Both the position numbers and the translations under genes were made by a program. Of a stretch of DNA of 64,000 nt, positions 1-58,695 are shown piece after piece. A model generated the notes under the pieces. The model did not search any database and had not been told where the DNA came from. It was given only the letters and a program-made list of their open reading frames with translations. Position 1 is the stretch's first letter. Every line of letters begins with the position of its first letter. Source of the stretch: an uncultured Gemmatimonadales bacterium (GTDB lineage Bacteria; Gemmatimonadota; Gemmatimonadetes; Gemmatimonadales; GWC2-71-9); assembly GCA_963798915.1 (NCBI GenBank), contig CAWCVB010000002.1:224001-288000 (forward strand). The letters run 5' to 3'.

Positions 1-165
1 GATCACGGCGGCGAGCTCGGGGCGGAGGACTTTGATGGCGACTTGGCGGTCGTGTTTCAGGTCGTGGGCGAGGTAGACGGTGGCCATGCCGCCGTGACCC
101 AGTTCATGCTCAATGCGGTAGCGGCCGGCCAGCGCGGTGGTGAGGCGGTCGAGATCGGCGCTCAT
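1..165 (-). CDS. K0: Ser/Thr protein kinase, 5' part only (truncated by window edge)
   Basis: Manual translation from ATG at 165 gives [55 protein letters not shown] (Gly-loop and VAIK). The ATG overlaps the K1 stop (ATGA at 162-165). Not in the ORF track. Confidence 0.93.
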
Positions 166-2882
166 CGGGTCACCGTGGCGATTCGCGTGTCCCAGTTGCC
201 GAGCAGACGCACCTCGCGCAGCGGAGGTTCGGTGGAGCGCTGCTTGAAAACGAAGCGATTGCCGCCCAGAGCCACGGCATAGTTGCGCCCGGGGAAGTCG
301 GCGACGGCAGCGCTGAAGAGCCACTGCGGCTCTCCGAACGGGCTGTCCGCGTTCGCCGGGTCGTAACGGACGGCATAGAAGCCCTGAACCACCCGGCCGC
401 GCGCCAGGTCACTTCGGTCACGGTCTCCCGCCGTCTTCACGAACGCGTTCCTGACATCCACCACGATGAATTCCTCACCGCCGGTGGCCCAGGCGGCCTG
501 GGAAAAGCGCGAGCCTCCCGCGATGACCAGGCGGCGGCCACGACCATCCAGGCTCCGCGCGACAATCGCCGTCTCCGACGCCCCGACCTCCTCGGAGACG
601 CGCCACTGCTCGTCCGGCGTGTAGCCACCAAGTGTGTTCTGGCCGATGAACGGCTCCATCGGGCGGCCGTCGGTGTGGAGGATCACCAGCTTGTCGTCCA
701 GCCAGGCACGGTAGCTCGCGGTGTCTGCCAGGGCGCTCACCTCCCTCGCTCCCTCGGGCAGCGCGAGGGCCCGCGGCGGCGCACTGCTCTCCGGATCGGC
801 GATGAATGTTCCGCTGTCGAGCGTGTACAGGACGTGTCGACCGTCGGGCATCCACTTCACTCCGGCGATGGTGGGCGCGCTGAACCATGGCGTCACCCGA
901 CCCGAGGCGATGTCGATGACCTGCAGTGCCCTGGCGCCCGTCGCCATCCCGACACTCACGACGAGGCGCCGGCCGTCAGGCGTCATGTCGATCGAATTGT
1001 AGTTTGCCGCCGGCGCCGGAATCGTGTCGAGCTTTCCGGTGCGGTCGGCCGCCACGAGCACTCCTTCCCCCGGAACGCCGCCCTGCGCCCACGCGACGAC
1101 CCCGCTTCGGGACACCCCGAATTGGGCGGCCCCACGGCCGCTTTCCACGCGGACACCTTCCGTCACGCTGACCGATGCGCCGGTGACCATTCCTTGCTTC
1201 GCATCGAACGGTGCGGCGTACAGCTGCCCGCCCGGCCCGACGTACAGGAGATGCCCGTCGCCATCGAGTCGGGCCATCGTCCCGCGGATCGCGTCGGCGG
1301 AGGTGGTAGATTGCCAACGCCGCAGCGCCGCCCTCGCGCCGGTCGTCAGGTTCATCACGCTCAGGCCGGACCGACTGGTGACGATGGCTCGGCGGCCGTC
1401 GGGGAGCGGCTCCGGCAGGCTGCACAAGTCGCAAGTGAACGCAGCCAGCGAGTCTCCGTTGGCTCCGAGCACCATCAGCTGCGTGGCGCGGCGGTTTGAC
1501 ACGAGGAGCCGACCATCCGGCAACCAGGCGCCGCCGAATGGATCGCTCAAGGTGGAAGACAGTCTGCGCACCTGGCCGTCGGCGAACGTGACCCGCTTGA
1601 GGTTGTTCGCCGCGAAGAAGGCGACGGCGTCACTGGCCGGCGAGAAGAAGGGCGCGATGGCGCCCTCGGTCCCGTCGAGAGCCCGCACGGAGAAATCGGC
1701 AAGCTGACGCAGGTACAGTTGGGTGCGGTTTCCGTGCCGGGCCACGAACACCAGCTTCGACCCATCCGGCGAGAGTGCGATCGTCGGCATTCCCTCCGGA
1801 TTGTTGGAGAACGGATCGAGGGCGAGTGAGTCCGGCAGCGTGACGCTCGCACCCCACGACACGATTCCCGGGGAGGACCTCGCCGGGCGCAGCCAACCCC
1901 ACAGCGCCGCGACCGCGAGGACGGAGAAGGCGACGATCCGGACCGCGCCCGCACGTCTTCCCGTGGCGGCGGCATTGCGCGTTCTCAACCCGGCGGTGCG
2001 CCGCGGCCGCGAGGCGGAGACATCGCCGAGCGCCGCCGCGAACTCCGCGGCGCTGGTGAAGCGGTCGGCCGGGAGCTTGGCCAGCGCCGTCAGCACCGCA
2101 TCCTCGACGGATTCGGGCACGGTGTCGCGCATGCGGGTCGGTGGCACCGGCTTTTCGGTCATCACCTTGGCGACGATCGCCTGCGCGGTGCTGCCGGTGA
2201 ACGGCGGATCGCCCACCAGCATCTCGTAGGTCATCGCACCGAGGGCGTAGATGTCGCTGCGGGCGTCGAGGGTGCGCTCGCCCATCGCCTGTTCCGGCGA
2301 CATGTAGTGCGGGGTGCCGAGACTCATGCCGGTCTCGGTCATGCGGGAGCCACCACTGGTGGCGGCGAGTGCGATCCCGAAGTCGGCGACCAGAGCGCGG
2401 CCATCGTGCAGGAGGATGTTCTCGGGCTTGATGTCGCGATGGATCACGCCGTGGCGATGGGCGTAGTCGAGCGCGCCGGCGACTTCGGTGGCGATGCGGA
2501 TCGCGTCAGGGATGGGGAGCTGCTTCTCGCGCGTCAGCCTGTCGCGCAGCGACTCGCCTTCGACGTAGGGCATGACGTAGTAGACGTGAGTCGTGGGTCG
2601 CGGGTCGCGAGAGTCGTCTGCGTACTCCACCTGTCCCGAATCGAACAGCGGGAGGATGTGGGGGTGCTGCAGGTTCGCGGTGGTCTGGATCTCCGACAGG
2701 AACCGCTCGGCGCCGATCACCGCGGCGAGTTCCGGACGCAGGACCTTGATCGCCACCCTGCGGTGGTGTTTCAGGTCCTCGGCGAGATAGACCGTGGCCA
2801 TTCCGCCCTGCCCCAGCTCGCGCTCGATGCGGTAGCGGTCGGCGAGGCCGGTCCGAAGCCCGGCCGACGGACCCTCGCTCAT
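162..2882 (-). CDS. K1: Hanks-type Ser/Thr kinase + TM + TolB/PD40-like beta-propeller (906 aa)
   Basis: True start [10 protein letters not shown] at 2882 (ATGA overlap with K2 stop). Motifs [56 protein letters not shown] repeats. The ORF-track extension to 3632 is a shadow of K2. Confidence 0.92.
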
Positions 2883-5527
2883 GGTGCCGCCTTCGGCGCG
2901 AGCTTGGCGAACCAGTTGTCGACCCAGACCACGTCGGGCGCCGCACCACCGGCCGCCCGACGCTCCCGCGTGAAGAGAAACGCGCCGTCGGCCAGCGCGG
3001 CATACCCCTGATGCCAGGGATCGACCGAGAACGCCGATGCGTCGAACAGCGGACGCACCGACAGCGCCGAAAACGTGGGCTTCGTGGCGATCTGCGCGGC
3101 CTCCAGGCGCGTGTCGGCATCGAGGAAGTACAGCTCGCGCCCATTGGGAGACCACACCGGCGAAGTGCCGCCGCGGCTCGAGATCTGCCAGGGCCCCCCG
3201 CTGGCCTCTGGAAACGGCTGCACGTACACCTCGTTCCGGCCCGAGGTGTTCGACGTGTACGCCAGCCATCGGCCGTCGGGGGAAAGCGCCGGGTGCGCTT
3301 CGGTGGCCGCTGTGGCCACGACCCGTCTCATGGCGGTATCGCTCGTCAGGCGCCGAGCCAGGATGTCCCCCGCGCCGGGCGTGCCGTTGTCGGTCCGCAC
3401 CACCAGCCACTCGCCGTCCCGGGAGAGCTCCAGCTCCTGCAGCAGCAGGTCCGAGCCGGCGACGACGTGTTCGGGACTGCTGCCGTCCGCCGGGCGGCTC
3501 ATGACACTGGTCGCGTTGGCGCTGTCGCGGAGCCAGAAGACCGACCGCCCGTCGCCGGACCACGTCGGCCGCTTGTCCGACCCCCCGAAGCTGACCCGGG
3601 TCGGCGGGGCGCCATCGAGCGGGGCGATCCACATCCCGCCGTCGACGGCATCCTGGCCGGACCAGATCGCGAGGCGGCCGCCAGTGGGGGACAGGGCGAA
3701 CGAATAGGCGGGACCGTGCCAGGCCGTATCCGCCGGGTAGGCCGCGCCGTCCCGGTTGACCCGCACCAGCTCGAGGTCGGGATGGGCACCGGGGTCACGG
3801 ACATAGACGATCGTCCCCGACGGCGATACGGTGAGCTCGGCAAAGCCGGGGCTCACGAACACACCGTCGAACGCCGGCACCGCCGCGCCGCCGATGGTGA
3901 GATGCGCCAGGTCGAACGGCACGATCATCGCGACGCCATCGGGCCGCACGTAGAGCAGTCGCCCCCCAGGCAGATACCACGCCTGCTCCACGTTCTCCAG
4001 CAGCCGGTTCACGCGGTGGGTGCGCAGGTCGAGCGCGTAGATCGCGAGGGAGCTGCACCGTCGGGCGCAGGCCTGGAAGAGAATGCCGCGCCCGCCGGGA
4101 AGCGGCTGGGGAAAGCGCATGCCGGCGCCCGGATTCGGTGTGTGGGGCAGCACCACCTCCGCCCGGCCGCCAGCGTCGCTGACCCGGCGCAGCGACTGGG
4201 TGGTCGAGGACACGTAGATGATGGTGCCGTCGTCCAGCCACGCGGGGCCGCCCGGCTCGGTGGCCGCGCTGTCACCGATGGTGCTCACCGGCCCGCCCGT
4301 CACGCGGATCTTCCTGAGCTGCCCGTCGGCCACGAAGGCGATCCACTGACCGTCGGGCGAAAATACCGGCATGAGCGCGCGCTCGGTGCCGGGAAGCACG
4401 ATCGCAGAGAGCGCGGAGCGGCGCTTGAGCACCAGGCGTGCCGCGGGTGAGTCCTCCTGGTACGCGACGATTGAGCCGTCCGGCGAGAGCGCGAGGAGGG
4501 GGGACCTCGAACGCGCCACCCGACGCTGCATCTTCGGGAGCGTGACAACCTGCCAGGTGGCGGTGAGCGCGGGAGCCGGTGGGTGCCGCCAGCGCCAGAC
4601 CAGGATCGGCAACGCGACCAGCGCGAGGACCCAGCCGGCCGCCATCGGAACGAGCAGCCGGTGCGAACGGGATGCGCGCGCCGTCTGCAGGGACAGGGTC
4701 GGCGTCGGGTTGGCGAGCGCCGCCGCGAATTCGGCCGCCGTCGCGAAGCGGTCGGCCGGAAGCTTCTGGAGCGCGTAGAGCGTCGCCATCTCGATTCCCG
4801 CCGGCACCGTCTTCCGGAGCTGATGCGGCGGCACCGGCTCGGCAGTCATCACCTTCGCCACGATCGCCTGCGCCGTAGGGCCGGTGAATGGCGGCTCCCC
4901 CGTGAGCATCTCGTAGAGCACCGCGCCCAGCGCGTAGACGTCGCTCCGGGCGTCGAGGGTCCGCTCTCCCATCGCCTGCTCGGGACTCATGTAGGTCGGC
5001 GTGCCGAGCGACATCCCGGTCTCGGTCATCCGCGTCCCCGCGCTCGAGGCGGCTAGCGCGATTCCGAAATCGGCCACCAGCGCGTTGCCGTCGTGCAGGA
5101 GGATATTTTCCGGCTTGATGTCGCGGTGGATGACGCCGTGGCGGTGCGCGTAGTCGAGGGCGGCGGCCACCTCGGTGGCAATCCGCACGGCCTCGGCGAC
5201 GGCGAGCTGCTTTTCGCGGGTGAGCCGGTCGCGGAGTGATTCGCCCTCGATGAACGGCATCGCATACCAGAGCAGTCCGCCGGCATCGCCCGAGTCGATC
5301 AGCCCCAGGATGTGCGGATGCTGCAGGTTCGCGGTGGTCTTGATCTCCGAGAGGAACCGGTCGGCGCCGATCACGGCGGCGAGCTCGGGGCGGAGGACTT
5401 TGATGGCGACTTGGCGATCATGCTTGAGGTCGTGGGCGAGGTAGACCGTGGCCATGCCGCCGGCGCCGAGCTCGCGCTCGATGGTGTAGCGGTCAGCGAG
5501 TGCGGCCCGGAGCGAGTCGATACTCAC
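2879..5527 (-). CDS. K2: Ser/Thr kinase + TM + PD40/TolB-like beta-propeller (882 aa)
   Basis: Complete kinase motifs, TM LLVPMAAGWVLALVALPILVW, many SPDG/WSGDG repeats. GTG start preceded by GGAGGTG Shine-Dalgarno. Confidence 0.93.
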   Translation of the reverse strand: MSIDSLRAALADRYTIERELGAGGMATVYLAHDLKHDRQVAIKVLRPELAAVIGADRFLSEIKTTANLQHPHILGLIDSGDAGGLLWYAMPFIEGESLRDRLTREKQLAVAEAVRIATEVAAALDYAHRHGVIHRDIKPENILLHDGNALVADFGIALAASSAGTRMTETGMSLGTPTYMSPEQAMGERTLDARSDVYALGAVLYEMLTGEPPFTGPTAQAIVAKVMTAEPVPPHQLRKTVPAGIEMATLYALQKLPADRFATAAEFAAALANPTPTLSLQTARASRSHRLLVPMAAGWVLALVALPILVWRWRHPPAPALTATWQVVTLPKMQRRVARSRSPLLALSPDGSIVAYQEDSPAARLVLKRRSALSAIVLPGTERALMPVFSPDGQWIAFVADGQLRKIRVTGGPVSTIGDSAATEPGGPAWLDDGTIIYVSSTTQSLRRVSDAGGRAEVVLPHTPNPGAGMRFPQPLPGGRGILFQACARRCSSLAIYALDLRTHRVNRLLENVEQAWYLPGGRLLYVRPDGVAMIVPFDLAHLTIGGAAVPAFDGVFVSPGFAELTVSPSGTIVYVRDPGAHPDLELVRVNRDGAAYPADTAWHGPAYSFALSPTGGRLAIWSGQDAVDGGMWIAPLDGAPPTRVSFGGSDKRPTWSGDGRSVFWLRDSANATSVMSRPADGSSPEHVVAGSDLLLQELELSRDGEWLVVRTDNGTPGAGDILARRLTSDTAMRRVVATAATEAHPALSPDGRWLAYTSNTSGRNEVYVQPFPEASGGPWQISSRGGTSPVWSPNGRELYFLDADTRLEAAQIATKPTFSALSVRPLFDASAFSVDPWHQGYAALADGAFLFTRERRAAGGAAPDVVWVDNWFAKLAPKAAP

Positions 5528-5586
5528 GTGCTCACCTCCACGGGGAGGCGGGCAGGGTGAGCTGGAAGGAACATGCCGGGACTCAT
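5524..5586 (-). CDS. Putative 20-aa coupling mini-ORF MSPGMFLPAHPARLPVEVST
   Basis: AAGGAG SD just upstream of ATG at 5586. Its TGA overlaps the K2 GTG start (GTGA at 5524-5527). Confidence 0.5.
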   Translation of the reverse strand: MSPGMFLPAHPARLPVEVST

Positions 5587-5608
5587 GCGGACTTCTCCTT
5601 GTGGTGCC

Positions 5609-8304: not shown

Positions 8305-8393
8305 CGCGAATGCCTGTCGCGCGGAAAAGCCGAAGGGGCGGTGTTGCGGCGGTCGAGCGCGACTGCCGTGAGCGCAGCGGAAGAGTCGTTCAC
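8301..8393 (-). CDS. Putative 30-aa mini-ORF MNDSSAALTAVALDRRNTAPSAFPRDRHSR (kinase-N-terminus-like)
   Basis: GTG overlaps the K4 stop (GTGA at 8390-8393), and its stop overlaps the next mini-ORF ATG. The MNDS start matches K18 (MNDSVEQL). Confidence 0.5.
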   Translation of the reverse strand: MNDSSAALTAVALDRRNTAPSAFPRDRHSR

Positions 8394-11017: not shown

Positions 11018-11076
11018 CAGGTCAATCTCCGAGACGCGTGTGCCGAAGGGGCGGCGGCAAGACGGTCGAGCCTCAT
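11017..11076 (-). CDS. Putative 19-aa mini-ORF MRLDRLAAAPSAHASRRLT (kinase-N-terminus-like)
   Basis: ATG overlaps the K5 stop (ATGA at 11073-11076), and its TGA overlaps the K4 ATG (TGATG at 11015-11019). RLAAA matches K16/K17 RLAAALSDRY. Confidence 0.55.
   Translation of the reverse strand: MRLDRLAAAPSAHASRRLT

Positions 11077-13762: not shown

Positions 13763-13766
<4 letters not shown>
11073..13766 (-). CDS. K5: Ser/Thr kinase + TM + PD40/TolB-like beta-propeller (897 aa)
   Basis: True start GTG at 13766 (MTVERLRTALADRY; GTGA overlap with K6 stop). Complete kinase motifs; TM PLFIGVAAIAVLALGGVAMLL; SPDG repeats. Confidence 0.92.
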
Positions 13767-16048
<2,282 letters not shown>

Positions 16049-16049
16049 C

Positions 16050-29173: not shown

Positions 29174-29177
<4 letters not shown>
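26526..29177 (-). CDS. K11: Ser/Thr kinase + TM + beta-propeller (883 aa)
   Basis: Complete kinase motifs; TM MILGAATLALAAVAAWALL; ISPDG/WNPDG repeats; ATGA overlaps at both ends. Confidence 0.93.
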
Positions 29178-31830
<2,653 letters not shown>

Positions 31831-31834
<4 letters not shown>

Positions 31835-50365: not shown

Positions 50366-50428
50366 TCACTCGAGTGACACGTGCCGAGCCGCGGCTTCCA
50401 GCCGCGAGCCCGACTGGTCAACGCTCAT
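50366..50428 (-). CDS. Putative 20-aa mini-ORF MSVDQSGSRLEAAARHVSLE (kinase-N-terminus-like)
   Basis: ATG overlaps the K18 stop (ATGA at 50425-50428). SRLEAA matches K7 MAELSRLEAAL. Confidence 0.45.
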   Translation of the reverse strand: MSVDQSGSRLEAAARHVSLE

Positions 50429-53109
50429 GGCGCGGGCCCCCACTTGAGACTCGGCGTGAAATGCTCGATCCTGACGAGCTGGGGTGGCGCGTCGGTGCCC
50501 TGTCCCACCATCAGAAAGTGCCGGTCGTCCGGGGCCACGGCATAGCGCGCATAGTCCAGCCCGGTCGCGGCGTCGCTGTGGAACAAGGCGTGCGGCGCGC
50601 CGGACCGGAACACGGGATTGGTGTCGACCTCCACGGCCATCAGGTCGAGCGTGCTGATGGCCCGGAAGAACAGTTCCTTTCCGGAATGCGCCCAGCGTGG
50701 TTCCACGCCTCCGTCCGTTGACACCTGCCACACCCCGCGGTTCACGTCCGGAAAGGGCCGCACGTACACCTCGCGCCGGCCGGAGGCAGTGGATACGTAG
50801 GCAATCCGGTGGCCGTCCGGCGAGATCACCGGGTTGGTTTCGGCCGCCGGTCCGGTGATGAGCGGCTGGAGCGTCGTATCGGAGCCGAGCCGCATGCCCA
50901 GGATGTCACCGGATCCGGCCTGGGCGCCAGAGGTCCGTACGACCAGCCACTGCCCGTCCGGTGATTCGCCGACCTCGGTGATGTCACGGTCACTCCGGAC
51001 GACCAGCGTGACACCACCTGTCCCGTCGGCCTGTTTCCGGAAGACCGCCTGCGGGTGCACGCGCTCGGAAATGAAGAGGATGGAGCGTCCGTCCCCGGCC
51101 CAGCTCGGGCGCACATCGGGAGCCGGATCCAGGGTGAAGCGGGTGAGCGGCCCTGACGGCAGTTGCTTGATCCAGATATCCGTGCCGGTGGTGCCGGCGC
51201 GCGAGAGTTCGACGGCCACCCGCTGGCCATCCGGTGACAGCGCTACTCCACGGATCTCACCGCCCTCCCGCCAGTCCCGGTCCACCGGGTGCGCCGTGCC
51301 GTCGCCTGCCACCCAGTCCAGCCGCGAGGTGGCACCCGGGGAGCCCGCGACATAGTAGAGCGCTCCGTCATCGCTCGCTGCCAGGTCCACCCCGGCGTAG
51401 GTGCCGCTTATGCGAGTACCGGACGCCACCGCCCTCGGCGGGGCAGTGAGCGCGAGGCGGCCCTCGTCGAAGGGGGCTGCCTGCAATGTCCCATCAACCG
51501 TCACGAAGAGCAGGTATCCGGCGGCATACCGGGCGCTCACCGCCTGGGTAACCACGCGGTGCTCGCCGGTACCAAGCCGCCAGGCCATGATGGAGAAATC
51601 TCCCGGGGCATCATTGGCATGGCGAAGCCGGAAGAGCGCCACTCGGTTCCCGGGGAGGATCTGCGGCCAGGCGATGCCGGTCTCATGCTGGAGCGTATCG
51701 AGCGGCGCCACCGTCCCGCGATCACTGCCATCGGGCCGTACCCGCTGCAGGCCTCCGACATCCGCGTCGAAATAGATGTATCCGTCGCTGGCCCAGTAGG
51801 CGCCGCTCGTGCCCAGGGGCGCCCCGACCACGGTCCGCGGCATCCCTCCACCAAGCTGCACCACCTTCATGATGCGACCATCGCGATCGGTGACGAAGCC
51901 GACCTGCCGGCCGTCGGGAGAGATGAACGGGTCGTAGGCGCCTTCCGTCCCGGGAATCGGAGTCGCGTTCAGGGTATTGCTGTGCTTCAGCCACAACCGT
52001 CCGCCAACCGAATCCCCACCGGTGTACACCAGGATGGATCCATCCCGGGAGACGGCCATATGGGTCCCCAGCATGGAAAGGCTCGGTGCCTGATCCGGAG
52101 GAAATCCCACGGCGAACTGCGACGGGAGCGACGGCTCCGATCGGAGTCGTCCCCAGAGCCAGAGCGCGACCGCGAGCACTGCGACGATCCAGCCCGCCAA
52201 GTTCATCAGACGGGAGAGTGGGCGATGGCGACTTCCCGTGCGCTCCCGTGTTCCGGAGGTGGAAGAGGCGATGGTCGTGGCACCGGAGAGCGCACTGGCA
52301 AATGCTGCTGTGCTGGCGAACCGGTCTGCGGGCAATTTCTGTAACGCGGTGAGCACCGCCGCATCCACGTGCTCCGGCACCGTCTTCCGCACGTCGCGCA
52401 GTGGCACCGGCTCCGCCGTGACCACCTTGGCCACGATCGCCTGTGCCGTGGGACCGGTGAAGGGCGGCTCGCCCGCGAGCATCTCGTAGGTCATCGCACC
52501 GAGCGCGTACACGTCGCTCTGAGCGGTGATCTCCCGCTCACCCATGGCCTGCTCGGGGCTCATGTAGTGCGGCGTGCCGAGCGACATCCCGGTTTCCGTC
52601 ATGCGGGTCCCGGCGGTCTTGCTCACCGCGAGTGCGATGCCGAAGTCGGCCACCAGGGCCTGGCCATCGTGCAGCATCACGTTCTCGGGCTTGATGTCGC
52701 GGTGGATCACGCCGTGGCGGTGGGCATAGTCGAGGGCGCTGGCCACCTCGCCGGCGATGCGGACGGCATCCCCGATGGGCAGCTGCTTCTCGCGGGCGAG
52801 CCGGTCGCGCAGTGACTCGCCCTCCACATACGGCATCACATAGAAGAGGAAGCTGCCGGCCTCACCCGAGTCGAAGAGCGGCAGGATGTGCGGGTGCTGC
52901 AGGTTGGCGGTAGTGCGAATTTCGGAGAGGAAGCGCTCGGCGCCGATCACGGCGGCAAGCTCGGGGCGGAGCACCTTGATCGCCACCTTGCGGTGGTGCT
53001 TGAGGTCTTCGGCGAGATAGACGGTGGCCATGCCGCCTTGGCCAAGTTCGCGCTCGATGCGGTAGCGGTCGGCGAGGGCGGCAGCCAGCTGCTCGACGGA
53101 GTCATTCAT
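50425..53109 (-). CDS. K18: Ser/Thr kinase + TM + PD40/TolB-like beta-propeller (894 aa)
   Basis: True start MNDSVEQLAAALADRY at 53109 (ATGA overlap with the upstream stop at 53106). Complete kinase motifs; TM LAGWIVAVLAVALWLWG. Confidence 0.92.
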   Translation of the reverse strand: MNDSVEQLAAALADRYRIERELGQGGMATVYLAEDLKHHRKVAIKVLRPELAAVIGAERFLSEIRTTANLQHPHILPLFDSGEAGSFLFYVMPYVEGESLRDRLAREKQLPIGDAVRIAGEVASALDYAHRHGVIHRDIKPENVMLHDGQALVADFGIALAVSKTAGTRMTETGMSLGTPHYMSPEQAMGEREITAQSDVYALGAMTYEMLAGEPPFTGPTAQAIVAKVVTAEPVPLRDVRKTVPEHVDAAVLTALQKLPADRFASTAAFASALSGATTIASSTSGTRERTGSRHRPLSRLMNLAGWIVAVLAVALWLWGRLRSEPSLPSQFAVGFPPDQAPSLSMLGTHMAVSRDGSILVYTGGDSVGGRLWLKHSNTLNATPIPGTEGAYDPFISPDGRQVGFVTDRDGRIMKVVQLGGGMPRTVVGAPLGTSGAYWASDGYIYFDADVGGLQRVRPDGSDRGTVAPLDTLQHETGIAWPQILPGNRVALFRLRHANDAPGDFSIMAWRLGTGEHRVVTQAVSARYAAGYLLFVTVDGTLQAAPFDEGRLALTAPPRAVASGTRISGTYAGVDLAASDDGALYYVAGSPGATSRLDWVAGDGTAHPVDRDWREGGEIRGVALSPDGQRVAVELSRAGTTGTDIWIKQLPSGPLTRFTLDPAPDVRPSWAGDGRSILFISERVHPQAVFRKQADGTGGVTLVVRSDRDITEVGESPDGQWLVVRTSGAQAGSGDILGMRLGSDTTLQPLITGPAAETNPVISPDGHRIAYVSTASGRREVYVRPFPDVNRGVWQVSTDGGVEPRWAHSGKELFFRAISTLDLMAVEVDTNPVFRSGAPHALFHSDAATGLDYARYAVAPDDRHFLMVGQGTDAPPQLVRIEHFTPSLKWGPAP

Positions 53110-54591
53110 GGATGTTGCTCGACGGCCTGGTGTGCCAGTGTCACCAGCGACCAGTAGGGCGGGGGATATCCGTCGCGCGCCCGGGCTTCGGCAGCCGCCC
53201 CACGCAGGTCCGCCGCCAGCGCGCGCTGGCGCGTCACGAACGCCTCGTGTGCCAGTGCTGATGATGCCGACATCCCTTCCGGAACAGGCCCGTGGCCGCC
53301 CAGGGCTGACCAGCACCCAGCTGTATCCCTTGGCCAGCCGCACGAGCGGCAGCCGATACCATGCATGATCCAGGGCTCGGCCCTCATCCGCCTGGTCGAG
53401 CATGGCATCAAGTACCGCGTTATCCAGGTGATCCTGCCAGAGCGCCGCGCTGTCCCGCCACTCGGCGACGACCACCAGTTGAGGATCGTACTCCAGATCT
53501 GATGGTTCCTGCGTCTCGAAGTGCCGGACGCCGAGCTCGGAGAGCCAGCGTCGGATGCCGGGGCGGGAGATGGTGGAGCGTCCCATCCACAGCGTGATGC
53601 CCTCGTCGTGGTAGGCGGACGAGGCCACCTCCGAACAGAAGAGGTGCGAGGGATCACTGTAGTCCATCGTGAAGTCGTACGGGATGTGACCGGCCCGCGC
53701 GCGTGCCAGCATGCGCGACGCGGCACGATGCGGCAGCATGGGGTCGGCTTCAAGAGCGGGCAGGTCCGCCCTCGGACGCAGCACCATCACGCGCAGCTTC
53801 TTGTCGGCCAGGTACTGCTCGGCGCTGGACACGGCGACGCCGATCTCGATGTGCGCTTCGATGACCGACACCTGGCGCGTGGCCGAATCGATGTAGACCA
53901 GGCCGACGTGCGAAAAATTTCCCGGGTAGTCATTGCCGCGGGCGATGAGCGCTGACGTGGGATAGCCGCCGCGGGAGACCAGCATGTCACCCGAATGAAT
54001 GCGAACGCCATGCACCAGGGCGGACGGCGTGGCGGACGGTTCGTCGCGTCCGAGAAGAAGCGCGGGACTGCTGTCGGGGTGCTGCAGCATCGCCTCCTCC
54101 ACCGCGGCCCGGGCGCCATAGAGCAGGCGATAGAGGCGTTGCCTTGCCTCGAGCTGGTCGGGATCCCAGTGACGCGACTGGTCCTTGATAACCTCGCGGA
54201 GCCGGCCGGCAAGCGCGACGTAGCCCCGGAGCTGCGAGGGACAGGCCGCGACGACGGGGCCGGTGGCGAAGAAGTCATCTTCCAGGGCCTGGAGGCGGGG
54301 ATCTGTCGGCCTCACCGGGGTGCCGGCGAGACTGTCGAGGTCTGCCGCCACGTCAGCGATCCTGAGGGCGGATGTATTGGTGGCTCCGCTGCAGCCGGCC
54401 GCTCGCGCAGCGACGAAGCGGCCCTCGAGCGCGCGCCAGAGCGAGTCCTGGTTCCAGGCAAAGGGAACACCGCGTGGCGGCGCGGGCGGCACCCTTACCG
54501 AGCGAGCGGGAACCGAGAGGAGCAGCACACCGAGGACACCAGCGAGGGTGATCCCGAGGCGTGACCGGGCAGTCAAGAGGCGAGCTCGCAC
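53106..54591 (-). pseudogene. YiiX/YebB-like permuted papain-like (NlpC/P60) cysteine hydrolase with N-terminal signal/anchor; one-base insertion at about 53304 (probably artefact)
   Basis: GDMLVSRG, FSHVGLV (His), PYDF...LFCSEV (Cys) and PSDL motifs in permuted order. The C-terminus continues in another frame (LGGHGPVPEGMS...YPPPYWSL) ending at 53106. Start GTG 54591 or TTG 54576. Confidence 0.8.
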
Positions 54592-54595
54592 GCTT

Positions 54596-55957
54596 TCAGC
54601 GACGGGCCCGCAATGCACGCACGCGAACCAGATAATAGAGCACCGACCCAGCCAGTACAGCGGACATGTACAGCACCTCATGCAGGGTGGAATGCGCCAG
54701 CACCCAGAGCACCACGGCCGATGCGAGCAGGGCCACCGTGGGTCCGCCGGGTGCGCGGAAGCTGCCGGCGGGCCGCGGGCGCGTGTACCGCAAGCGCAGC
54801 GCGGCCAGGCAGACAGCCAGATAGATCAGCAGCAGCGCCATGCTCGCCAGCACGGCCAGCACCTGGAAGCCGCCGCTCAGGCTGAGCAGCAGGGTGACGG
54901 CCGCGAAGGCGATGATCGAAATCCACGGCGTATGGAAGCGCGGATGCACCCGTGCCAACGCCTGAGGCAGCATGCCGCTTTCCGACGCGGCCAGAAAGGC
55001 GCGCGGCGTGCCGATCATGTCGGCCGCCAGTGCGCCGAAGACGGCGACAGCGGTGCAGGCCACCACGATGCTGCGCCCCGGACCGGCGGCCAGCCGCTGG
55101 GCCAGGTCCGCGAGCGGCGTCGCGCTGCCATGGGCCAACTCGCTGCCCAGCACCCCCTGCGCCACCAGCTGGAGCACAACGTACAGCAGCACCAGCGCAC
55201 CCGCGGCGCCAAGAATTCCCCGTGGCACGGTCCGGGTGGGATCGCGAATCTCGCCGCTGGGCGTGAGCGCGCTCTCCATCCCACCAAAGGCGAAGAAGAG
55301 CACCAGCGTGCCGGCGCCCAGCTGCGACACCGAGGGCCACCCATTCCATGTCAGGTTGGACCATTGGACCGCCAGCAGACCAACCACGGCCAGCAGCAGC
55401 AGCGGCGCCAGCTTGGCCACTGTGGTGGCAACCGCGAGCCGGGTACCCTGGCGCACGCCCCTGATGTTGATGACGGCGAGGCTGCCAAAGAGCAGAACCA
55501 GACCGAACATGCGGGGCACACCGCCGGCAAGAGGTGGAAGGACCGTTGCCACCGCATCCAGCAGCACGTGGGCAATGGCGGCGTCGGACGCCGCCGACCA
55601 GATGATCGCAAAGACCACCCACGCCAGGAAACCCGACAGCGGCCCGAACGCCTCCTCGATGTAGGCCACGGACCCGCCGGATCGGGTGACTTGGCTGCCC
55701 ACCTCGGCAAAGCAGGTCAGTACCAGGATGATCAGGGCGCCGCAGACGAGATAGGCCAGGATCGCGGCGGGTCCCAGAATGGCGGCCACCACGGCGGGCA
55801 GCGCGAAGATGCCGGCGCCAATCGTCAGGTTGATGGCATTGGCGCCCAAAGCCCATGGGCCGATGGCGCGGACCAGCACCGACTCTGCCGCTGGTAGCGT
55901 CGGCGGAGTCGAGGCTGGCAAGACCGGGGCGGTGAATTCGCTGCCGGTAATTGTCAT
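54596..55957 (-). CDS. APC-family amino acid/polyamine permease (453 aa)
   Basis: IGAGIF in TM1, FAEVGS...SGGSVAYI, FFAFGGME, EIRDPTRTVPRG, HPRFHTPW; about 12 hydrophobic segments; ATGA overlap with K19 stop. Confidence 0.93.
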   Translation of the reverse strand: MTITGSEFTAPVLPASTPPTLPAAESVLVRAIGPWALGANAINLTIGAGIFALPAVVAAILGPAAILAYLVCGALIILVLTCFAEVGSQVTRSGGSVAYIEEAFGPLSGFLAWVVFAIIWSAASDAAIAHVLLDAVATVLPPLAGGVPRMFGLVLLFGSLAVINIRGVRQGTRLAVATTVAKLAPLLLLAVVGLLAVQWSNLTWNGWPSVSQLGAGTLVLFFAFGGMESALTPSGEIRDPTRTVPRGILGAAGALVLLYVVLQLVAQGVLGSELAHGSATPLADLAQRLAAGPGRSIVVACTAVAVFGALAADMIGTPRAFLAASESGMLPQALARVHPRFHTPWISIIAFAAVTLLLSLSGGFQVLAVLASMALLLIYLAVCLAALRLRYTRPRPAGSFRAPGGPTVALLASAVVLWVLAHSTLHEVLYMSAVLAGSVLYYLVRVRALRARR

Positions 55958-58695
55958 GGCGAGGCGAGCTTCAACTGCTTCAGTTCGGCACGCCAGTTGA
56001 AGATCACGTTGAGGGACGTCGCGTCACTGCCGCCGGCGGTCACCATCAGGAACCGGCGGCCATCGGGATGCACGTCGTACCCGCGGTAGTACTCCTGCAT
56101 CCCCAGCCCGGTGCCATCAAACAGCAAGTGCGGGACACCATGGGTGAACGAGCGTCCGGTGGTGACGGGGACCGCGTACATGTCACCCCGCTGACTTCGG
56201 AAGAAGAGCTCCTTCCCGTCTCGCCGCCAGAGCGGCTCGACACCTCCGCCGACCGATACCACGTAGCGCGCCGAGTCCACGTTGGGAAATGGACGAACAT
56301 GAACCTGTGGGGTGCCGGCTTCCGCGGAGACATAGGCCAGCCATTGGCCATCGGGCGAAAGTGCGATGGCATAATTGTCGTAGCGCGACGGGAGGATGGA
56401 ACGCGGCGTGCTGTCAACGCCGTTCCTGATCTGCATCAGGTGACGCGACCCGGGCCCCGAGCCTTCCGATCGGAAGAGGGTGAAGCGTCCCTGGGGATCG
56501 AAGAGGATCTCGTCAAGTCCGACGTCCGGGGGCGAAGCCGGTTCGGCGGCATCGCTCCCGTCGGCCCGGCGCATCCAGGCCGTGCGCCGGCCATCCCGGC
56601 TCGCGAGATAGGCGACCCGCTTGCCGTCGGGCGTCCAGACAGGGCGGTTAGCGCTGACGACGTCAAAAGAAAGTCGGCTGAGCGCGCCGGTGGCGAGTTG
56701 TTCGATCCAGATCTGGTCATCTCCCAATTCACTTCGCGTTACCGCGATCTGGCTGGCATCCGGGGAAAGAGCAAGTGCGGAAACGACCAGCGCCGGATCG
56801 GACGGAACCGCGGTCCGCTGGCCATCGCGGTCCACCCAGACCAGCCCGGCCCGGTCGCCGGATGTGGGCTGGTACACCAGGGTGCCGTTCGACGACACCG
56901 CGAATTGCACGGTGCCGTTGCTTCCGTCGGTCTGCACGTTGCGACGGACCAGCACGGGAGTTCCCGCGAGGCGACCGCCCCTCGCATCAAGCGGCGCCTC
57001 CAGAAGATTGCCCTCGGCGGTGCCGATCACGATCATGCCGCCGCCGATGTAGCGGACATAGGAGCCCGGGGCAAGATCGGTGACGGCGCCCGAGGCGACG
57101 TCGACGAGGCCGATATGGTTGGAGGTGATCGAGCCTTTCCAGACCATGACCAGCGCCTGCCGGCTGCCAGGCAGCACGTCGGGAAAGTCGAGTTCCTGGA
57201 TGGCCTGGGTCGAGTCCGGCCGGGCGATCCGCGTGACGGCGCCACCGGAGGATGATACGCGCGCCAGGTTGCGGCTGGCGTCGGTGAAGTAGATCTGGCC
57301 GTCATCGGCCCAGTCGGCTCCGCCGAACTGCGCCACGGAATCAGCGACCAGCGTGCGAGCGACTCCGCCGGTGAGCGCGATCACCTTGAGCGCGAGACGG
57401 CCTCCGTCAGCGGTGACGAATCCCACCGATTGCCCGTCAGGAGAGAAGAACGGCGCGAACGCGCCCTTGGTGTCAGGGAGCGGGCGGGCGGCGGGCTGGT
57501 CCAGTTCACGGACCCAGAGTGCGTTGTCTGCCCCGTTGGGCCCGACAAACACAACGCGCCGCCCGGAGGGGGCAATGGCGAGCCTGATATTGGCGATGGC
57601 GCGAACCCGGACGCTGTCGCCCAGGGTGATGGTCGCGTGCACCACCTCATCCGGCCCGACGCTGCCGGGGTCGGCTCCCTTTCCTCGCAGCATGAGACTT
57701 GCCGCGAGTGCCAGGACCGCCGCCACCGCAACGCCGATCAGCGCAAGGCTGCGGCGGTCGCGGATCCAGACGCGCGCGGGGCCAGCGGCATGCGCATCCA
57801 TTCCCGCCATGGTGTAGCCCGGATCGTTGAGCGCCTCGGCAAATTCCCTGGCGGTGGCGAACCGATCAGCGGGCAGGCGTTCGACGGCCTTGGCTACCGC
57901 CGCCGCGACGTTGGGTGGCACGGACTTCCGGAGCCGGGTGACCGGGGCCGCTTCCTCGGTCACGATCTTCATGATGATCTGCTGCGCCGAGGTGCCCATG
58001 TGAGGCGGCTCGCCGGTCAGCATTTCATAGAGCACGCTGCCGAGCGAATAGATATCGCTCCGGCCGGTGATCTCCTTGTCGGCGGTGGCCTGCTCGGGGC
58101 TCATGTAGTGCGGGGTGCCAAGCGACATCCCGGTCTCGGTCATCCGGCCGCCCGCGGCGGCACTCAAGGCCAGCGCAATGCCGAAGTCGGCCACCATGGG
58201 CCGGCCGTCGTGGAGGAGAATGTTCTCCGGCTTGATGTCGCGGTGGATCACCCCGTGGCGGTGGGCGTAGTCCAGGGCATCGGCCACGCTGGTGGCGATG
58301 CGCACCGACTCCTCAATGCCCAGCTGGGTCTCGCGGTCGAGCTTGCTGCGGAGGGTCTCGCCGTCGATGAACGGCATGACGTAGTACAGGAGGTCTACGG
58401 TCGACTGTCGACCGTCGACCGTCGACCGTTGACTGTCGACCCTGGCTATTCCCGAATCAAACAGCGGGAGAATGTGCGGATGCGAGAGTGCCGCGGTGGT
58501 CTTGATCTCGACCACGAAGCGCTCGGCGCCGATTACGGCGGCGAGCTCGGGCTTGAGGACCTTGAGCGCGACCTTGCGATCGTGCTTGAGGTCCTCGGCA
58601 AGATAGACCGTGGCCATGCCGCCCTGGCCCAGCTCACGCTCGATGCGGTAGCGGTCGGATAATGCGCTGGAAAGACGGGTGAGAGCGTCAGTCAT
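55954..58695 (-). CDS. K19: Ser/Thr kinase + TM + PD40/TolB-like beta-propeller (913 aa)
   Basis: Complete kinase motifs; TM LALIGVAVAAVLALAASLML; SPDG repeats; heptamer-repeat loop insert identical to K14. Confidence 0.94.
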   Translation of the reverse strand: MTDALTRLSSALSDRYRIERELGQGGMATVYLAEDLKHDRKVALKVLKPELAAVIGAERFVVEIKTTAALSHPHILPLFDSGIARVDSQRSTVDGRQSTVDLLYYVMPFIDGETLRSKLDRETQLGIEESVRIATSVADALDYAHRHGVIHRDIKPENILLHDGRPMVADFGIALALSAAAGGRMTETGMSLGTPHYMSPEQATADKEITGRSDIYSLGSVLYEMLTGEPPHMGTSAQQIIMKIVTEEAAPVTRLRKSVPPNVAAAVAKAVERLPADRFATAREFAEALNDPGYTMAGMDAHAAGPARVWIRDRRSLALIGVAVAAVLALAASLMLRGKGADPGSVGPDEVVHATITLGDSVRVRAIANIRLAIAPSGRRVVFVGPNGADNALWVRELDQPAARPLPDTKGAFAPFFSPDGQSVGFVTADGGRLALKVIALTGGVARTLVADSVAQFGGADWADDGQIYFTDASRNLARVSSSGGAVTRIARPDSTQAIQELDFPDVLPGSRQALVMVWKGSITSNHIGLVDVASGAVTDLAPGSYVRYIGGGMIVIGTAEGNLLEAPLDARGGRLAGTPVLVRRNVQTDGSNGTVQFAVSSNGTLVYQPTSGDRAGLVWVDRDGQRTAVPSDPALVVSALALSPDASQIAVTRSELGDDQIWIEQLATGALSRLSFDVVSANRPVWTPDGKRVAYLASRDGRRTAWMRRADGSDAAEPASPPDVGLDEILFDPQGRFTLFRSEGSGPGSRHLMQIRNGVDSTPRSILPSRYDNYAIALSPDGQWLAYVSAEAGTPQVHVRPFPNVDSARYVVSVGGGVEPLWRRDGKELFFRSQRGDMYAVPVTTGRSFTHGVPHLLFDGTGLGMQEYYRGYDVHPDGRRFLMVTAGGSDATSLNVIFNWRAELKQLKLASP
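58393..58441. repeat. Heptamer tandem repeat (GTCGACY-like x7) in K19, identical to 37095-37143
   Basis: Direct sequence comparison. Confidence 0.9.

Follow-up and report, generated by a model that had tools for sequence, protein, structure and literature searches.

The window, a 64,000-nt stretch of Gemmatimonadales DNA, is best explained as carrying an unusually large, co-oriented bank of periplasmic sensors on PknB-like kinases with module-specific concerted evolution, a reading to which we assign a probability of about 0.6. Twenty Hanks-type Ser/Thr kinase modules lie on the minus strand, bearing out an earlier note's claim of a giant one-strand kinase array. Eighteen genes (K0-K17) run head to tail over positions 1-45315, K0 being clipped by the window edge, and two further kinases (K18 and K19) lie outside this main array:

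K0, 1..165, minus strand: N-terminal 55 kinase residues with RYRIE, GGMATVY G-loop and VAIKV; repeat family D15 member
K1, 162..2882, minus strand: kinase, TM helix (aa 313-331) and PD40 propeller; Pkinase 164.8 bits, PD40 31.5 bits
K2, 2879..5527, minus strand: kinase, TM helix and PD40 propeller; tract 5055-5182 identical to K17
K3, 5609..8245, minus strand: kinase (Pkinase 182.3 bits), TM helix and divergent PD40/Tricorn_N-like ectodomain (alone, PD40 25 bits and Atlas score 0.95 to PD40/Tricorn_N clusters)
K4, 8390..11017, minus strand: kinase, TM helix (aa 290-308) and PD40 propeller; Pkinase 151.8 bits, PD40 122.4 bits
K5, 11073..13766, minus strand: kinase, TM helix and double β-propeller; modelled copy
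K6, 13763..16048, minus strand: kinase and α/β+TPR module (Pkinase and TPR families); TM segment deleted
K7, 16050..18469, minus strand: kinase, TM helix and α/β+TPR; one frameshift; 2420 nt
K8, 18557..21193, minus strand: kinase, TM helix and PD40 propeller
K9, 21190..24157, minus strand: kinase, TM helix and long α/β+TPR-like ectodomain; one frameshift; 2968 nt
K10, 24154..26529, minus strand: kinase, TM helix and α/β+TPR ectodomain; modelled copy
K11, 26526..29177, minus strand: kinase (Pkinase 175 bits), TM helix and propeller-class ectodomain; PD40 sub-threshold
K12, 29174..31834, minus strand: kinase, TM helix and PD40 propeller
K13, 31831..34752, minus strand: kinase, TM helix, FGE-sulfatase-like and dienelactone-hydrolase-like domains
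K14, 34749..37392, minus strand: kinase, TM helix and PD40 propeller; one extra base; 2644 nt
K15, 37389..40052, minus strand: kinase, TM helix and PD40 propeller
K16, 40049..42670, minus strand: kinase (Pkinase 154.1 bits), TM helix and propeller-class ectodomain; PD40 sub-threshold
K17, 42667..45315, minus strand: kinase, TM helix and PD40 propeller; TTG start; transcriptionally first in the array
K18, 50425..53109, minus strand: kinase, TM helix and PD40 propeller; outside the main array
K19, 55954..58695, minus strand: kinase, TM helix and PD40 propeller; outside the main array

A motif scan of the window located 19 HRDxKPxN sites with DFG and GTPxYMxPE after each. The plus strand has none; on the minus strand there are 17 within 1-45315 (2441, 5128, 7846, 10618, 13367, 15625, 18019, 20794, 23755, 26130, 28778, 31435, 34341, 36947, 39647, 42235 and 44922) and two outside the main array (52704 and 58245). 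The twentieth copy, K0, is the kinase fragment at the left edge. An independent repeat search returned a 152-nt N-terminal kinase segment (D15) in 20 copies, including 1-152, spaced 2.3-3.0 kb apart within the array. With one domain architecture present 20 times on the same strand, and 44,995 of the first 45,315 nt filled by array genes, the arrangement is not due to chance. Adjacent genes overlap by 4 nt (ATGA or GTGA) at 12 of 17 junctions, nine of them in succession from K17 to K8 and one between the K0 ATG and the K1 stop, and an (A/G)TGA start context is present at all 17. Scans for promoters and terminators scored no better than shuffled controls, and co-transcription is predicted from these overlaps. 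A Pfam scan of the long ORFs found no FHA, PP2C or other partner gene in the window. The host, a member of the Gemmatimonadales, is a soil-type bacterium.

Of the 26 long ORFs searched, 18 have a Pkinase match above the Pfam gathering score, with K9 assigned through the motif scan and kinase-domain matches. The G-loop, VAIK, αC Glu, HRD, DFG and SPE/APE motifs are present in every copy, with VALK in K19, VAVK in K4, and the catalytic motifs of K7 and K14 divided between two frames. These putatively bitopic RD kinases, their catalytic motifs intact, are predicted to be active, as the earlier note had proposed. Searching the PDB with a profile of the K5 family placed the M. tuberculosis PknB kinase domain at the top (E=1.9e-71), followed by StkP, PknA and PknE. 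The NCBIfam models PknB_PASTA_kin (267-314 bits, cut-off 450) and PknD (129-176 bits, cut-off 839) fall short of their cut-offs and match the kinase part alone.

A hydropathy scan, from which the topology is predicted, revealed one hydrophobic helix, located at aa 288-335, in all but one of the 19 scorable copies, which would place the kinase in the cytoplasm and the sensor (~550 residues) in the periplasm. The scan found no hydrophobic segment in K6, where alignment with K10, K7 and K9 opens a ~39-column gap at the helix position. Domain search and BLAST recovered the reported pairing of a conserved kinase with strongly differing extracytoplasmic parts, and our count of C-terminal modules is likewise 14 propellers, four of TPR type and one FGE plus hydrolase. 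PD40 scores above the gathering threshold in 12 copies (K1, K2, K3, K4, K5, K8, K12, K14, K15, K17, K18 and K19) and below it in K11 and K16, which were assigned to the propeller class via BLAST to paralogues. The K11 ectodomain (PD40 14.9 bits) aligns with those of K5, K12, K17, K18 and K19 at 23-27% over ~500 aa, and the K16 ectodomain shares 57% identity with that of K14, with an Atlas score of 0.98 to PD40/Tricorn_N clusters. TPR families are detected in K6, K7 and K10 and sub-threshold in K9, while K13 matches FGE-sulfatase (79.8 bits) and DLH (26.9 bits). The AlphaFold2 model of the K5 ectodomain (pLDDT 89.5, pTM 0.86) is all-β with ~45 strands, its best PDB matches being two-propeller proteins (2ymu, Aip1 1nr0, Pwp2, LRP6 E1E2 and tricorn 1k32). 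For the K10 ectodomain model (pLDDT 89.4, pTM 0.90), the structural matches are TPR superhelices and the periplasmic domain of CadC.

K7, K9 and K14 each contain a single frameshift, their lengths (2420, 2968 and 2644 nt) not being multiples of 3. In K7 it lies in the activation loop, after DFG (17962) and before GTP (17879), with HRD and DFG sharing one frame and GTPAYMAPE lying in another. In K9 it lies near 22300, the GC3 coding frame changing between 22360 and 22270. K14 has an extra base at its VAIK codons (~37270), within a stretch otherwise nearly identical to K19. The catalytic motifs reported earlier are found in every copy; these three frameshifts and the helix loss in K6 had been overlooked. 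A possible fourth frameshift was seen at the end of a C92 peptidase-like ORF.

The sensor types are anciently separated, each forming an orthogroup conserved across the order. Among the best 120 K5 homologues, identity is 56-87%; 114 cover ≥97% of the length, and the other six are shorter or partial entries (68-90% coverage). The K5 ectodomain shares 55-86% identity with full-length orthologues from other Gemmatimonadales versus 24-30% with array paralogues. The K8 ectodomain orthogroup descends from 83% to 52%, with matches thereafter at ≤37%; a 543-aa entry without a kinase domain (P0287) is 48% identical to the K8 ectodomain. K11 has outside orthologues at up to 54%, and a K13 orthologue of the same ectodomain type (L060:6811) aligns at 45% over 643 aa. 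Since orthologues share 52-86% and paralogues ~25%, the sensors are old and conserved. The ectodomains of K5 and nine orthologues form one clade (SH-aLRT 99), and the ectodomain diverges only about twice as much as the kinase between closest relatives (14% versus 7% for K5/P0002; 17% versus 7.5% for K8/P0271). The rapid ectodomain diversification proposed earlier is not supported by these values.

The kinase modules follow a different course, showing concerted evolution specific to this module. Nucleotide identity between copies is 75-100% only within ~+20 to +800 nt of the start and 30-50% on either side. K5 and K8 are 92.9% identical in their kinase modules and 24.5% in their ectodomains; the K12-K15 values are 88% and 27%. 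The K5 kinase module is 66-84% identical to its orthologues, and that of K8 is 93% identical to K5 versus 66-77% to its own orthologues. In AU tests on kinase modules, monophyly was rejected for K5 plus nine orthologues (log-likelihood difference 163, p=9.4e-5) and for K8 plus eight (195, p=2e-57), the clades having been named after the BLAST identities were seen, so that the tests were not blind. Building the separate trees proposed in the earlier note gave opposite outcomes, the ectodomain tree recovering an orthogroup clade and the kinase modules rejecting orthogroup monophyly. The best match of the kinase lay in the same genome for 26 of 79 proteins, and that of the ectodomain for two of 79.

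The kinase modules are mosaics of identical tracts (73-155 nt) set in 70-80% identical surroundings. In a Sawyer-type run test screening 171 pairs, none of 100,000 permutations produced a run as long as that observed in K14-K19 (79 sites), K2-K17 (85) and K9-K10 (38). K14 (37077-37229) and K19 (58375-58527), 21 kb apart, share an identical 153-nt tract; K2 (5055-5182) and K17 (44849-44976), 40 kb apart, share one of 128 nt; and a 73-nt tract of K9 (24044-24116) is identical to K10. When the kinase module is divided into thirds, the nearest paralogue changes from one third to another for 17 of the 19 copies, the exceptions being K5 and K8. Where residues are identical, the fraction with the same codon is 0.58 for kinase modules and 0.43 for ectodomains (78 pairs), or 0.74 and 0.34 for K5-K8. 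Other genome bins display within-locus kinases up to 87-92% identical with ectodomains at 24-33% or not alignable. Across 1,770 pairs of the K5 orthogroup, kinase identity hardly correlates with ectodomain identity (Spearman 0.15), the ectodomain being more alike than the kinase in 142, which indicates that exchange recurs across lineages. Kinase identity was not seen to fall with array distance (Mantel r=0.11, p=0.84, all copies; r=-0.08, p=0.23, propeller types), an outcome at odds with simple neighbour-biased conversion. The most similar pair, K5-K8, has no single long identical tract (run test p=0.14); the two are uniformly similar, and their likeness is older than the split from the closest relatives, as P0002 and P0271 have the same kinase type. 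The kinase modules are alike because they were exchanged between old paralogues, a homogenisation that explains why a conserved kinase is joined to variable sensors.

Young tandem duplicates with ectodomains recombined in from elsewhere, and no kinase overwriting, would produce the same kinase/ectodomain tree discordance, and the (A/G)TGA context at 17/17 junctions with 12 overlaps fits a repeated unit; species-specific Pkinase clades have also been attributed to "duplication and/or recombination" in the available text of PMC11032199. We consider this account unlikely, given the shifting nearest neighbours and the mosaic modules, which point to short-tract conversion between existing copies, the distances of 21 and 40 kb between tract partners, and the weak correlation within the K5 orthogroup. 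Sensor swapping and kinase overwriting are not mutually exclusive. Mis-assembly or consensus polishing of dispersed paralogues is very improbable as the origin of the array, its identical tracts or its frameshifts. The source is a metagenome-type contig, and mis-mapped reads during polishing could create or erase small paralogue differences within one assembly; three kinase frameshifts and possibly one in the C92 peptidase-like ORF give a rate of ~1 per 16-21 kb, which would suit indel-prone sequencing, and the extra base of K14 sits in its K19-like stretch. Against this, no exact repeat shared by two copies exceeds 155 nt (<80 nt in most pairs), each unit contains ~1.7 kb of unique ectodomain sequence, and the window's proteins map to one 784,222-bp contig. 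Independent genome bins hold up to seven same-strand kinases within 22.7 kb and repeat the similar-kinase/divergent-sensor pattern, and both ectodomain types tested (K5 and K8) have their own orthologues elsewhere.

A birth-and-death receptor repertoire for immunity or self/non-self recognition, with arms-race-driven ectodomains and the kinase as a fixed output, is very improbable. Its attractions are the tandem layout with very divergent ectodomains, array content and order that vary among species representatives, the three frameshifted copies and the one without a membrane helix, and a 2026 preprint whose available text describes divergent surface β-propellers that sense threats and act upstream of an Actinomycetota kinase (PMC13622651). 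The PADLOC models PD-T4-6, mad6 and MkoA also match the kinases (E down to 1e-97), but only across kinase residues ~6-300, and the NCBIfam defence models score far below cut-off (MADS6 ~150-190 versus 460 bits; PglW ~69-86 versus 990). The Pfam scan of long ORFs and PADLOC found no toxin, nuclease, NTPase or other defence gene in the window, with zero PADLOC matches for the three non-kinase proteins scanned. The conserved orthogroups and the twofold divergence ratio described above weigh against an arms race, and the ectodomain family is very large (8,941 50%-identity clusters at E≤1e-30), including fusions to winged-helix DNA-binding regulators. The earlier interpretation is partly supported, by the bitopic RD kinases, the differing arrays and the three frameshifted copies, but not as regards a diversifying repertoire or an undescribed immunity system, the searches having found no defence-associated neighbour and only generic kinase-domain matches to defence models.

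For the bank of sensors on concertedly evolving kinases, we propose that the 0.8 kb encoding the kinase is overwritten again and again by sequence from paralogues, through gene conversion or unequal recombination, leaving near-identical kinase modules on unrelated sensors within one genome. PknB and PknD provide the model for the receptor mechanism: by analogy, a periplasmic ligand would bind the sensor, the receptor would dimerise, the TxT activation loop would be autophosphorylated and cytoplasmic substrates would then be phosphorylated. With their kinase modules homogenised, the receptors would channel many inputs to a common set of substrates.

The array has in common with PknB and PknD the RD Hanks kinase (HRD and DFG motifs, double-Thr activation loop), one membrane helix and an extracytoplasmic sensor. 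It lacks PASTA domains, and its propellers are doubled and of PD40/Tricorn type, unlike the six-bladed NHL propeller of PknD (described as a six-bladed β-propeller in the available text of PMC2877116). The K10-class model superposes on the E. coli CadC periplasmic domain (PDB 3ly7-3lya) with a target-normalised TM-score of 0.61-0.65 (rmsd ~5 Å over ~310 columns, sequence identity 12-14%). The propeller class, whose Atlas clusters are auto-named "CadC family", is also fused to Trans_reg_C winged-helix domains (P0339, P0341, P0348 and P0375); the output here is a Hanks kinase, versus a DNA-binding domain in CadC. PD-T4-6, MADS MAD6 and BREX PglW have the Hanks kinase domain in common with the array, but neither C-terminal parts nor partner genes. 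Plant DUF26/CRK clusters, as portrayed in the accessible part of PMC6368629, are likewise tandem, with unequal crossover and gene conversion, species copy-number differences and pseudogenes. The array is unlike them in being prokaryotic and apparently polycistronic, with conversion restricted to the kinase module and ectodomains that are old orthogroups, not young, fast-diverging duplicates.

Compared across related genomes (species representatives), as the earlier note had suggested, array content and order both differ. At least two same-strand kinases occur in 13 of 25 related loci of ≥20 kb and a lone kinase in the other 12, so clustering is not required for function. To call Hanks kinases usually dispersed overstates the case, given these 13 loci and the tandem duplicates described for myxobacteria in the accessible text of PMC11032199. 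The same text, citing Perez et al. 2008, reports expansions of membrane Ser/Thr kinases with periplasmic WD40/TPR in Planctomycetota and Myxobacteria. As far as that text describes them, these families resemble the array in their cytoplasmic Pkinase, membrane span and periplasmic propeller/TPR repeats, and in lineage-specific expansion with some adjacent duplicates and species-specific Pkinase clades. The array differs from them in its phylum, Gemmatimonadota, in its PD40/Tricorn_N-type double propellers rather than WD40, and in its uninterrupted head-to-tail run of at least 18 genes, mostly with 4-nt overlaps. Its within-genome kinase clades, moreover, carry sensors that diverged long ago and are conserved among orthologues, a pattern that indicates conversion and not young duplicates. 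Other phyla were already known to have kinase-PD40/TPR receptors and tandem kinase duplicates, and the array belongs to a known kind of signalling family, of which it is a large example, rather than being a new immune system.

Twenty Hanks-type Ser/Thr kinase genes (K0–K19) are present in the window, whose G+C content is 66–72% throughout. A six-frame motif scan located HRDxKPxN 19 times, always on the minus strand and always followed by DFG and GTPxYMxPE; 17 of these sites lie at 2441–44922, spaced 2.3–3.0 kb apart, and the other two at 52704 and 58245. Of the twentieth kinase, K0, just the N-terminus lies inside the window, in the first 165 bases, and the gene continues beyond the left edge; an independent repeat search recovered the N-terminal kinase segment as 20 copies (family D15). 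Motif scan, edge copy, and repeat search thus agree with the 18 back-to-back kinases plus two counted in an earlier note made from the sequence alone. With gene starts set ~131–150 codons upstream of HRD, the array genes occupy 44,995 nt of the first 45,315. The features are:

1–45315, minus strand: main array, K0–K17
45602–50240, plus strand: 2-oxoacid:ferredoxin-oxidoreductase-like cluster, divergent, forming the array's right-hand boundary
50425–53109, minus strand: K18, outside the main array
53110–54681, minus strand: Peptidase_C92 (YaeF/YiiX-like amidase) ORF, upstream of K18 and in the same frame
55954–58695, minus strand: K19, outside the main array
60481–63771, plus strand: Sortilin-Vps10/BNR (Asp-box) repeat protein, 1096 aa

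Adjacent array genes share 4-nt ATGA/GTGA stop/start overlaps at 12 of 17 junctions, nine of them consecutive from K17 to K8. These overlaps are the basis on which co-transcription of the array genes is proposed, the consensus promoter and terminator scans being uninformative, with no signal above shuffled controls in 5000–22000 and 45000–60500. The remaining five junctions contain gaps, and at three of them (5527, 8245, and 11017) the start codon keeps its following A (ATGA/GTGA), which may be a retained ancestral unit boundary or just a conserved Met-Ser/Thr N-terminus. The divergent cluster, encoding a Fer4_20/Pyr_redox_2/4Fe-4S protein, a POR/POR_N protein, and a TPP_enzyme_C protein, is separated from K17 by 286 bp, the likely promoter region of the array. 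The C92 peptidase-like ORF and an amino-acid permease are interspersed with K18 and K19, followed by an amidohydrolase and the sortilin/BNR protein (Pfam), which appears unrelated to the kinase array. Pfam detects neither an FHA protein nor a phosphatase or other partner gene in the window, which also holds no tRNAs and no Rfam families.

Pkinase scores above the gathering threshold in 18 of 26 long ORFs submitted to Pfam, with 129.8–182.3 bits for PF00069 in 17 ORFs and 42.4 bits for the C-terminal piece of K7 (cut-off 31.7). All copies carry the G-loop, β3 Lys, αC Glu, HRDxKxxN, DFG, and APE, placing the full catalytic motif set on a Pkinase fold, and most have an activation loop with two threonines (R-M-T-E-T-G). 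The best solved relative of the K5-family profile is the M. tuberculosis PknB kinase domain (E=1.9e-71), followed by StkP, PknA, and PknE. The copies fall outside the PknB/Stk1 PASTA class (NF033483), scoring 267–314 bits against a cut-off of 450 in six proteins scanned, with matches confined to the kinase part; PASTA families are absent from the Pfam scan of window ORFs. They are likewise not PknD, defined by an equivalog score above 839 bits (NF009651) and a six-bladed NHL propeller, as matches reach 129–176 bits in the kinase part only. No NCBIfam equivalog exceeds its cut-off in the six proteins.

A Kyte-Doolittle scan places a single helix at aa 288–335 in 18 of 19 copies. Bitopic receptor kinases are defined by a lack of any N-terminal signal sequence and by a lone membrane-spanning helix that links kinase and C-terminal domain, and by hydropathy the proteins have this layout; their orientation, with the C-terminal ectodomain outside, is a prediction from sequence. 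The exception is K6 (13763–16048, minus strand), whose residues ~290–335 lack the helix found in K7, K9, and K10, a gap of ~39 columns coinciding with its position. The K6 "ectodomain" would then stay cytoplasmic, or the copy may be decaying.

The ectodomains fall into three classes, as the earlier note had divided them: 14 propellers, four α/β plus TPR modules, and one FGE-sulfatase plus hydrolase. PD40 (PF07676) exceeds 20.9 bits in 12 of the 14 propellers and remains below threshold in K11 (14.9 bits) and K16 (17.7 bits), both of which join the class via BLAST matches to paralogues. With three relatives available for aligning the K16 ectodomain, its assignment also draws on an Atlas look-up, in which look-alikes with PD40 and PF26549 "Tricorn_N" were found for K16 (0.98) and for the divergent K3 (0.95). 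The AlphaFold2 model of the K5 ectodomain (alignment of 61 sequences; pLDDT 89.5, pTM 0.86) is all-β, with ~45 strands and one helix at the C-terminus. In the PDB it most resembles the two-propeller proteins 2ymu, Aip1, Pwp2, LRP6 E1E2, and tricorn protease, at low TM-scores (0.28–0.34) that we attribute to inter-domain geometry. Together with the PF07676 scores, this double-propeller model identifies the class as PD40 (WD40-like, TolB-type) propellers.

K6, K7, K9, and K10 carry an α/β module followed by TPR repeats, and K13 an FGE-sulfatase-like domain joined to a dienelactone-hydrolase-like domain. The K10 ectodomain model (24157–25602, minus strand; pLDDT 89.4, pTM 0.90) resembles TPR superhelices and superposes on the CadC periplasmic domain with a target-normalized TM-score of 0.61–0.65 and an rmsd of ~5 Å. 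The matching entries, 3ly7–3lya, are the pH/lysine-sensing periplasmic domain of E. coli CadC, and the modeled resemblance hints at the fold class to which the four TPR-type sensors may belong. The PD40/Tricorn_N double propeller is also joined to a Trans_reg_C winged-helix domain in P0339, P0341, P0348, P0375, and Atlas clusters; the hits, mostly from Acidobacteriota, are CadC/ToxR-like one-component regulators in which the kinase is replaced, a distribution that fits a sensor module of general periplasmic use.

Among array paralogues, kinase domains are 50–91% identical and ectodomains 23–36% identical or unalignable, with K14/K16 (57%) and K2/K17 (45%) as exceptions. Paralogous ectodomains are saturated (23–57% amino-acid identity). 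Unusually fast divergence of the sensors, as expected of the diversifying repertoire proposed in the earlier note, would account for this contrast. Comparison with orthologues argues against it. The K5 ectodomain shares 86, 68, 65, 63, 63, 56, 56, 57, and 57% identity with nine database orthologues and 24–30% with its array neighbors, and the K8 orthogroup reaches 83%, then 60–52%, before dropping to ≤37%; P0287 in this group (48%) is shorter (543 aa) and without a kinase domain. The ectodomain tree unites K5 and its nine orthologues in one clade with short branches (SH-aLRT 99), and paralogue branches measure 0.6–4.2 substitutions per site. These identities and the tree indicate that the sensor types predate the sampled Gemmatimonadales and are conserved. 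Judged by protein identity, with 52–86% inside the K5 and K8 orthogroups, fast-evolving sensors are therefore rejected as the source of the contrast. The closest orthologues, P0002 (K5) and P0271 (K8), are represented by protein sequences; among ectodomain matches that come with DNA, the best shares 55% identity.

The kinase module, the N-terminal ~0.8 kb of coding sequence, follows a different history. K5 and K8 modules are 92.9% identical; K5 shares 84–66% with the modules of its own orthologues and K8 66–77% with those of its orthologues. Kinase trees group K8 and P0271 together with K5 and P0002, and the K5 orthologues P0067 and P0108 bear K16/K19-type modules. AU tests, with groups chosen once the BLAST identities had been seen, reject kinase monophyly for both the K5 orthogroup (log-likelihood difference 163, p=9.4e-5) and the K8 orthogroup (195, p=2e-57). 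The pattern extends beyond this array. Across 1,770 pairs from the K5 orthogroup, kinase identity shows almost no correlation with ectodomain identity (Spearman 0.15). Among proteins from genomes with at least three sampled kinases, the best match lies in the same genome for 26 of 79 kinase modules and 2 of 79 ectodomains, and other genome bins contain kinase pairs 87–92% identical whose ectodomains are 24–33% identical or unalignable.

Counted from the start codon, nucleotide identity reaches 75–100% only between ~+20 and +800 nt, falling to 30–50% on either side. A Sawyer-type run test (566 polymorphic sites, 171 pairs, 100,000 permutations) reveals shared runs for K14–K19, K2–K17, and K9–K10 that were reached in none of the permutations, and for K12–K15 at p=1e-3; K5–K8 is not significant. 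Exact tracts of 153, 128, 73, and 73 nt connect K14–K19 (21 kb apart), K2–K17 (40 kb), K9–K10 (adjacent, 2.4 kb), and K12–K15 (8 kb), respectively. Except in K5 and K8, the nearest paralogue is not the same for every third of the module (17 of 19 copies). Protein-level constraint could also keep kinases alike, yet identical residues use the same codon at a frequency of 0.58 in the kinase module versus 0.43 in the ectodomain (78 pairs), and of 0.74 versus 0.34 for K5–K8, so the similarity exceeds what such constraint alone explains. Copies farther apart in the array are no less alike in their kinases (Mantel test, not significant), which counts against a simple neighbor-conversion model. Paralogues closer than orthologues within the segment, mosaic identical tracts, and sharp boundaries are the marks of concerted evolution by gene conversion; all three are seen here, and we regard them as evidence that the conserved-kinase/variable-sensor pattern comes from a kinase module evolving in concert on ancient sensors.

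In a search over up to 8,000 candidates, the 120 best homologues of K5 are 56–87% identical; the match spans 97% or more of K5 in 114 of them and 68–90% in six shorter or partial entries; all named entries among these 120 are from Gemmatimonadales or Gemmatimonadota genome bins. The window's own protein was located on a 784,222-bp contig. Of 1.84 billion cluster representatives, 62,682 match the K5 ectodomain at E≤1e-3 and 8,941 do so at E≤1e-30, which makes the family very large. A scan of species-representative genomes gave at least 623 matching stretches, from which 69 loci were taken, 68 with a Gemmatimonad label. The sole locus labeled Ilumatobacteraceae, a short contig (JALHOG010000161.1, 2950 bp), probably entered its bin as a contaminant. 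Among the 25 loci that span 20 kb or more, one same-strand kinase occurs in 12, two in six, three in three, four in two, five in one, and seven in one, counts bounded by 10-kb flanks in which runs of 18 could not appear. Clustering is therefore common, not universal. Neither order nor content of the array is conserved among 20 multi-kinase loci of species-level relatives, and the variation in tandem array content anticipated in the earlier note is real.

The earlier account of the copies, correct in its counts, overlooked single frameshifts in K7, K9, and K14. K7 switches frame inside the activation loop, between DFG and GTP; K14 has one surplus base at the VAIK codons, amid sequence that is otherwise almost identical to K19; and the K9 coding frame switches near 22300 by GC3 periodicity, with K9-like external proteins aligning only to ~22600, short of the frameshift. 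Their gene lengths (2420, 2968, and 2644 nt for K7, K9, and K14) imply one indel each in otherwise undisrupted genes, which on sequence grounds may be real pseudogenes or may carry indel errors. Sequencing error gains plausibility from what may be a fourth frame problem, where the C92-like ORF ends. This ORF runs without a stop to the K18 start, yielding an apparent 1418-aa ORF, its coding signal weakens over the final ~100 codons, and an alternative frame (53106–53786) ends in a stop overlapping the K18 ATG by 4 nt. It is either a separate frameshifted gene or, less likely, a true fusion with K18. Among the 69 loci, tblastn detected relatives of neither the K18 upstream extension nor the K9 C-terminal ORF (21190–22386).

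The suggestion that the array is an undescribed immune system finds no support in kinase-only PADLOC matches, NCBIfam scores below cut-off, and the absence of defense neighbors from the window. A defense kinase of the MADS MAD6 or BREX PglW type is recognized by a full-length match above a curated cut-off with system partner genes nearby, and the single-gene PD-T4-6 kinase by a match along the entire protein plus a demonstrated anti-phage phenotype. The PADLOC models PD-T4-6, mad6, and MkoA match strongly, confined to the kinase domain. The PD-T4-6 models, which have no curated cut-off, hit 17 of 17 kinases at E values of 1e-78 to 1e-97, covering only kinase residues ~6–330, and behave as generic Hanks-kinase detectors. 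Automated defense annotation of this contig would yield ~20 probably false "PD-T4-6" systems, because the models match housekeeping-type Hanks kinase domains at 1e-80 to 1e-97. MADS MAD6 (NCBIfam MADS6, ~150–190 bits versus 460) and BREX PglW (~69–86 bits versus 990) are both rejected, their partner genes also being absent from the window.

The architecture itself has precedents. By published accounts, the most frequent tethered partners of Ser/Thr kinases in prokaryotes include PD40 and TPR (PMC2877116), Planctomycetota have massive membrane-kinase expansions with periplasmic WD40 or TPR arrays (PMC11032199), myxobacteria contain tandem duplicates and species-specific Pkinase clades ascribed to "duplication and/or recombination" (cited in PMC11032199), and gene conversion occurs among tandem receptor-like kinases of plants (PMC6368629). 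Our literature search, covering few subscription journals, found nothing on such arrays or kinase-module conversion in Gemmatimonadota or other bacteria, nor on Gemmatimonadetes/Gemmatimonadota kinase expansions. The array is real, and it is striking yet ordinary: the receptor-kinase architecture is a known one, here in a tandem cluster of very large size and in a phylum whose literature, as far as searched, does not discuss it. What it adds is the evidence for concerted evolution. Species-specific clades in bacterial kinase-domain trees are usually taken as recent duplication bursts; if module exchange holds, such clades can also arise by gene conversion between very old paralogues, which would change the dating of kinome expansions and require receptor-kinase orthology to be assigned by sensor, not kinase. 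Gemmatimonadales would join the groups with large, clustered receptor-kinase repertoires, and the array would constitute a natural chimera set, the same kinase on at least 14 different sensors, useful for dissecting periplasmic-propeller control of Hanks kinases.

The array comprises a bank of PknB-like RD kinases with intact motifs, one helix each, and distinct conserved domains predicted to be extracytoplasmic, encoded by co-oriented genes that overlap at stops and starts and exchange modules between copies. What is known of PknB and PknD provides the steps proposed from ligand to phosphorylation: a periplasmic ligand would bind the sensor, the receptor would dimerize, its activation loop would be autophosphorylated in trans, and cytoplasmic substrates would then be phosphorylated. 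Because the kinase modules are homogenized, different inputs probably address overlapping substrates. A more ambitious reading joins three claims, namely that homogenization is selected, that the array is a super-operon, and that mixed receptors share one substrate set ("many sensors, one output"); we consider this conjunction unlikely, at roughly one in five. The array would be a single, largely translationally coupled super-operon of at least 10 genes, whose interchangeable kinase modules would hetero-dimerize, cross-phosphorylate, and address one substrate set, with gene conversion keeping the output wiring uniform and the sensors distinct. Such an arrangement would be comparable in its logic to chemoreceptor arrays.
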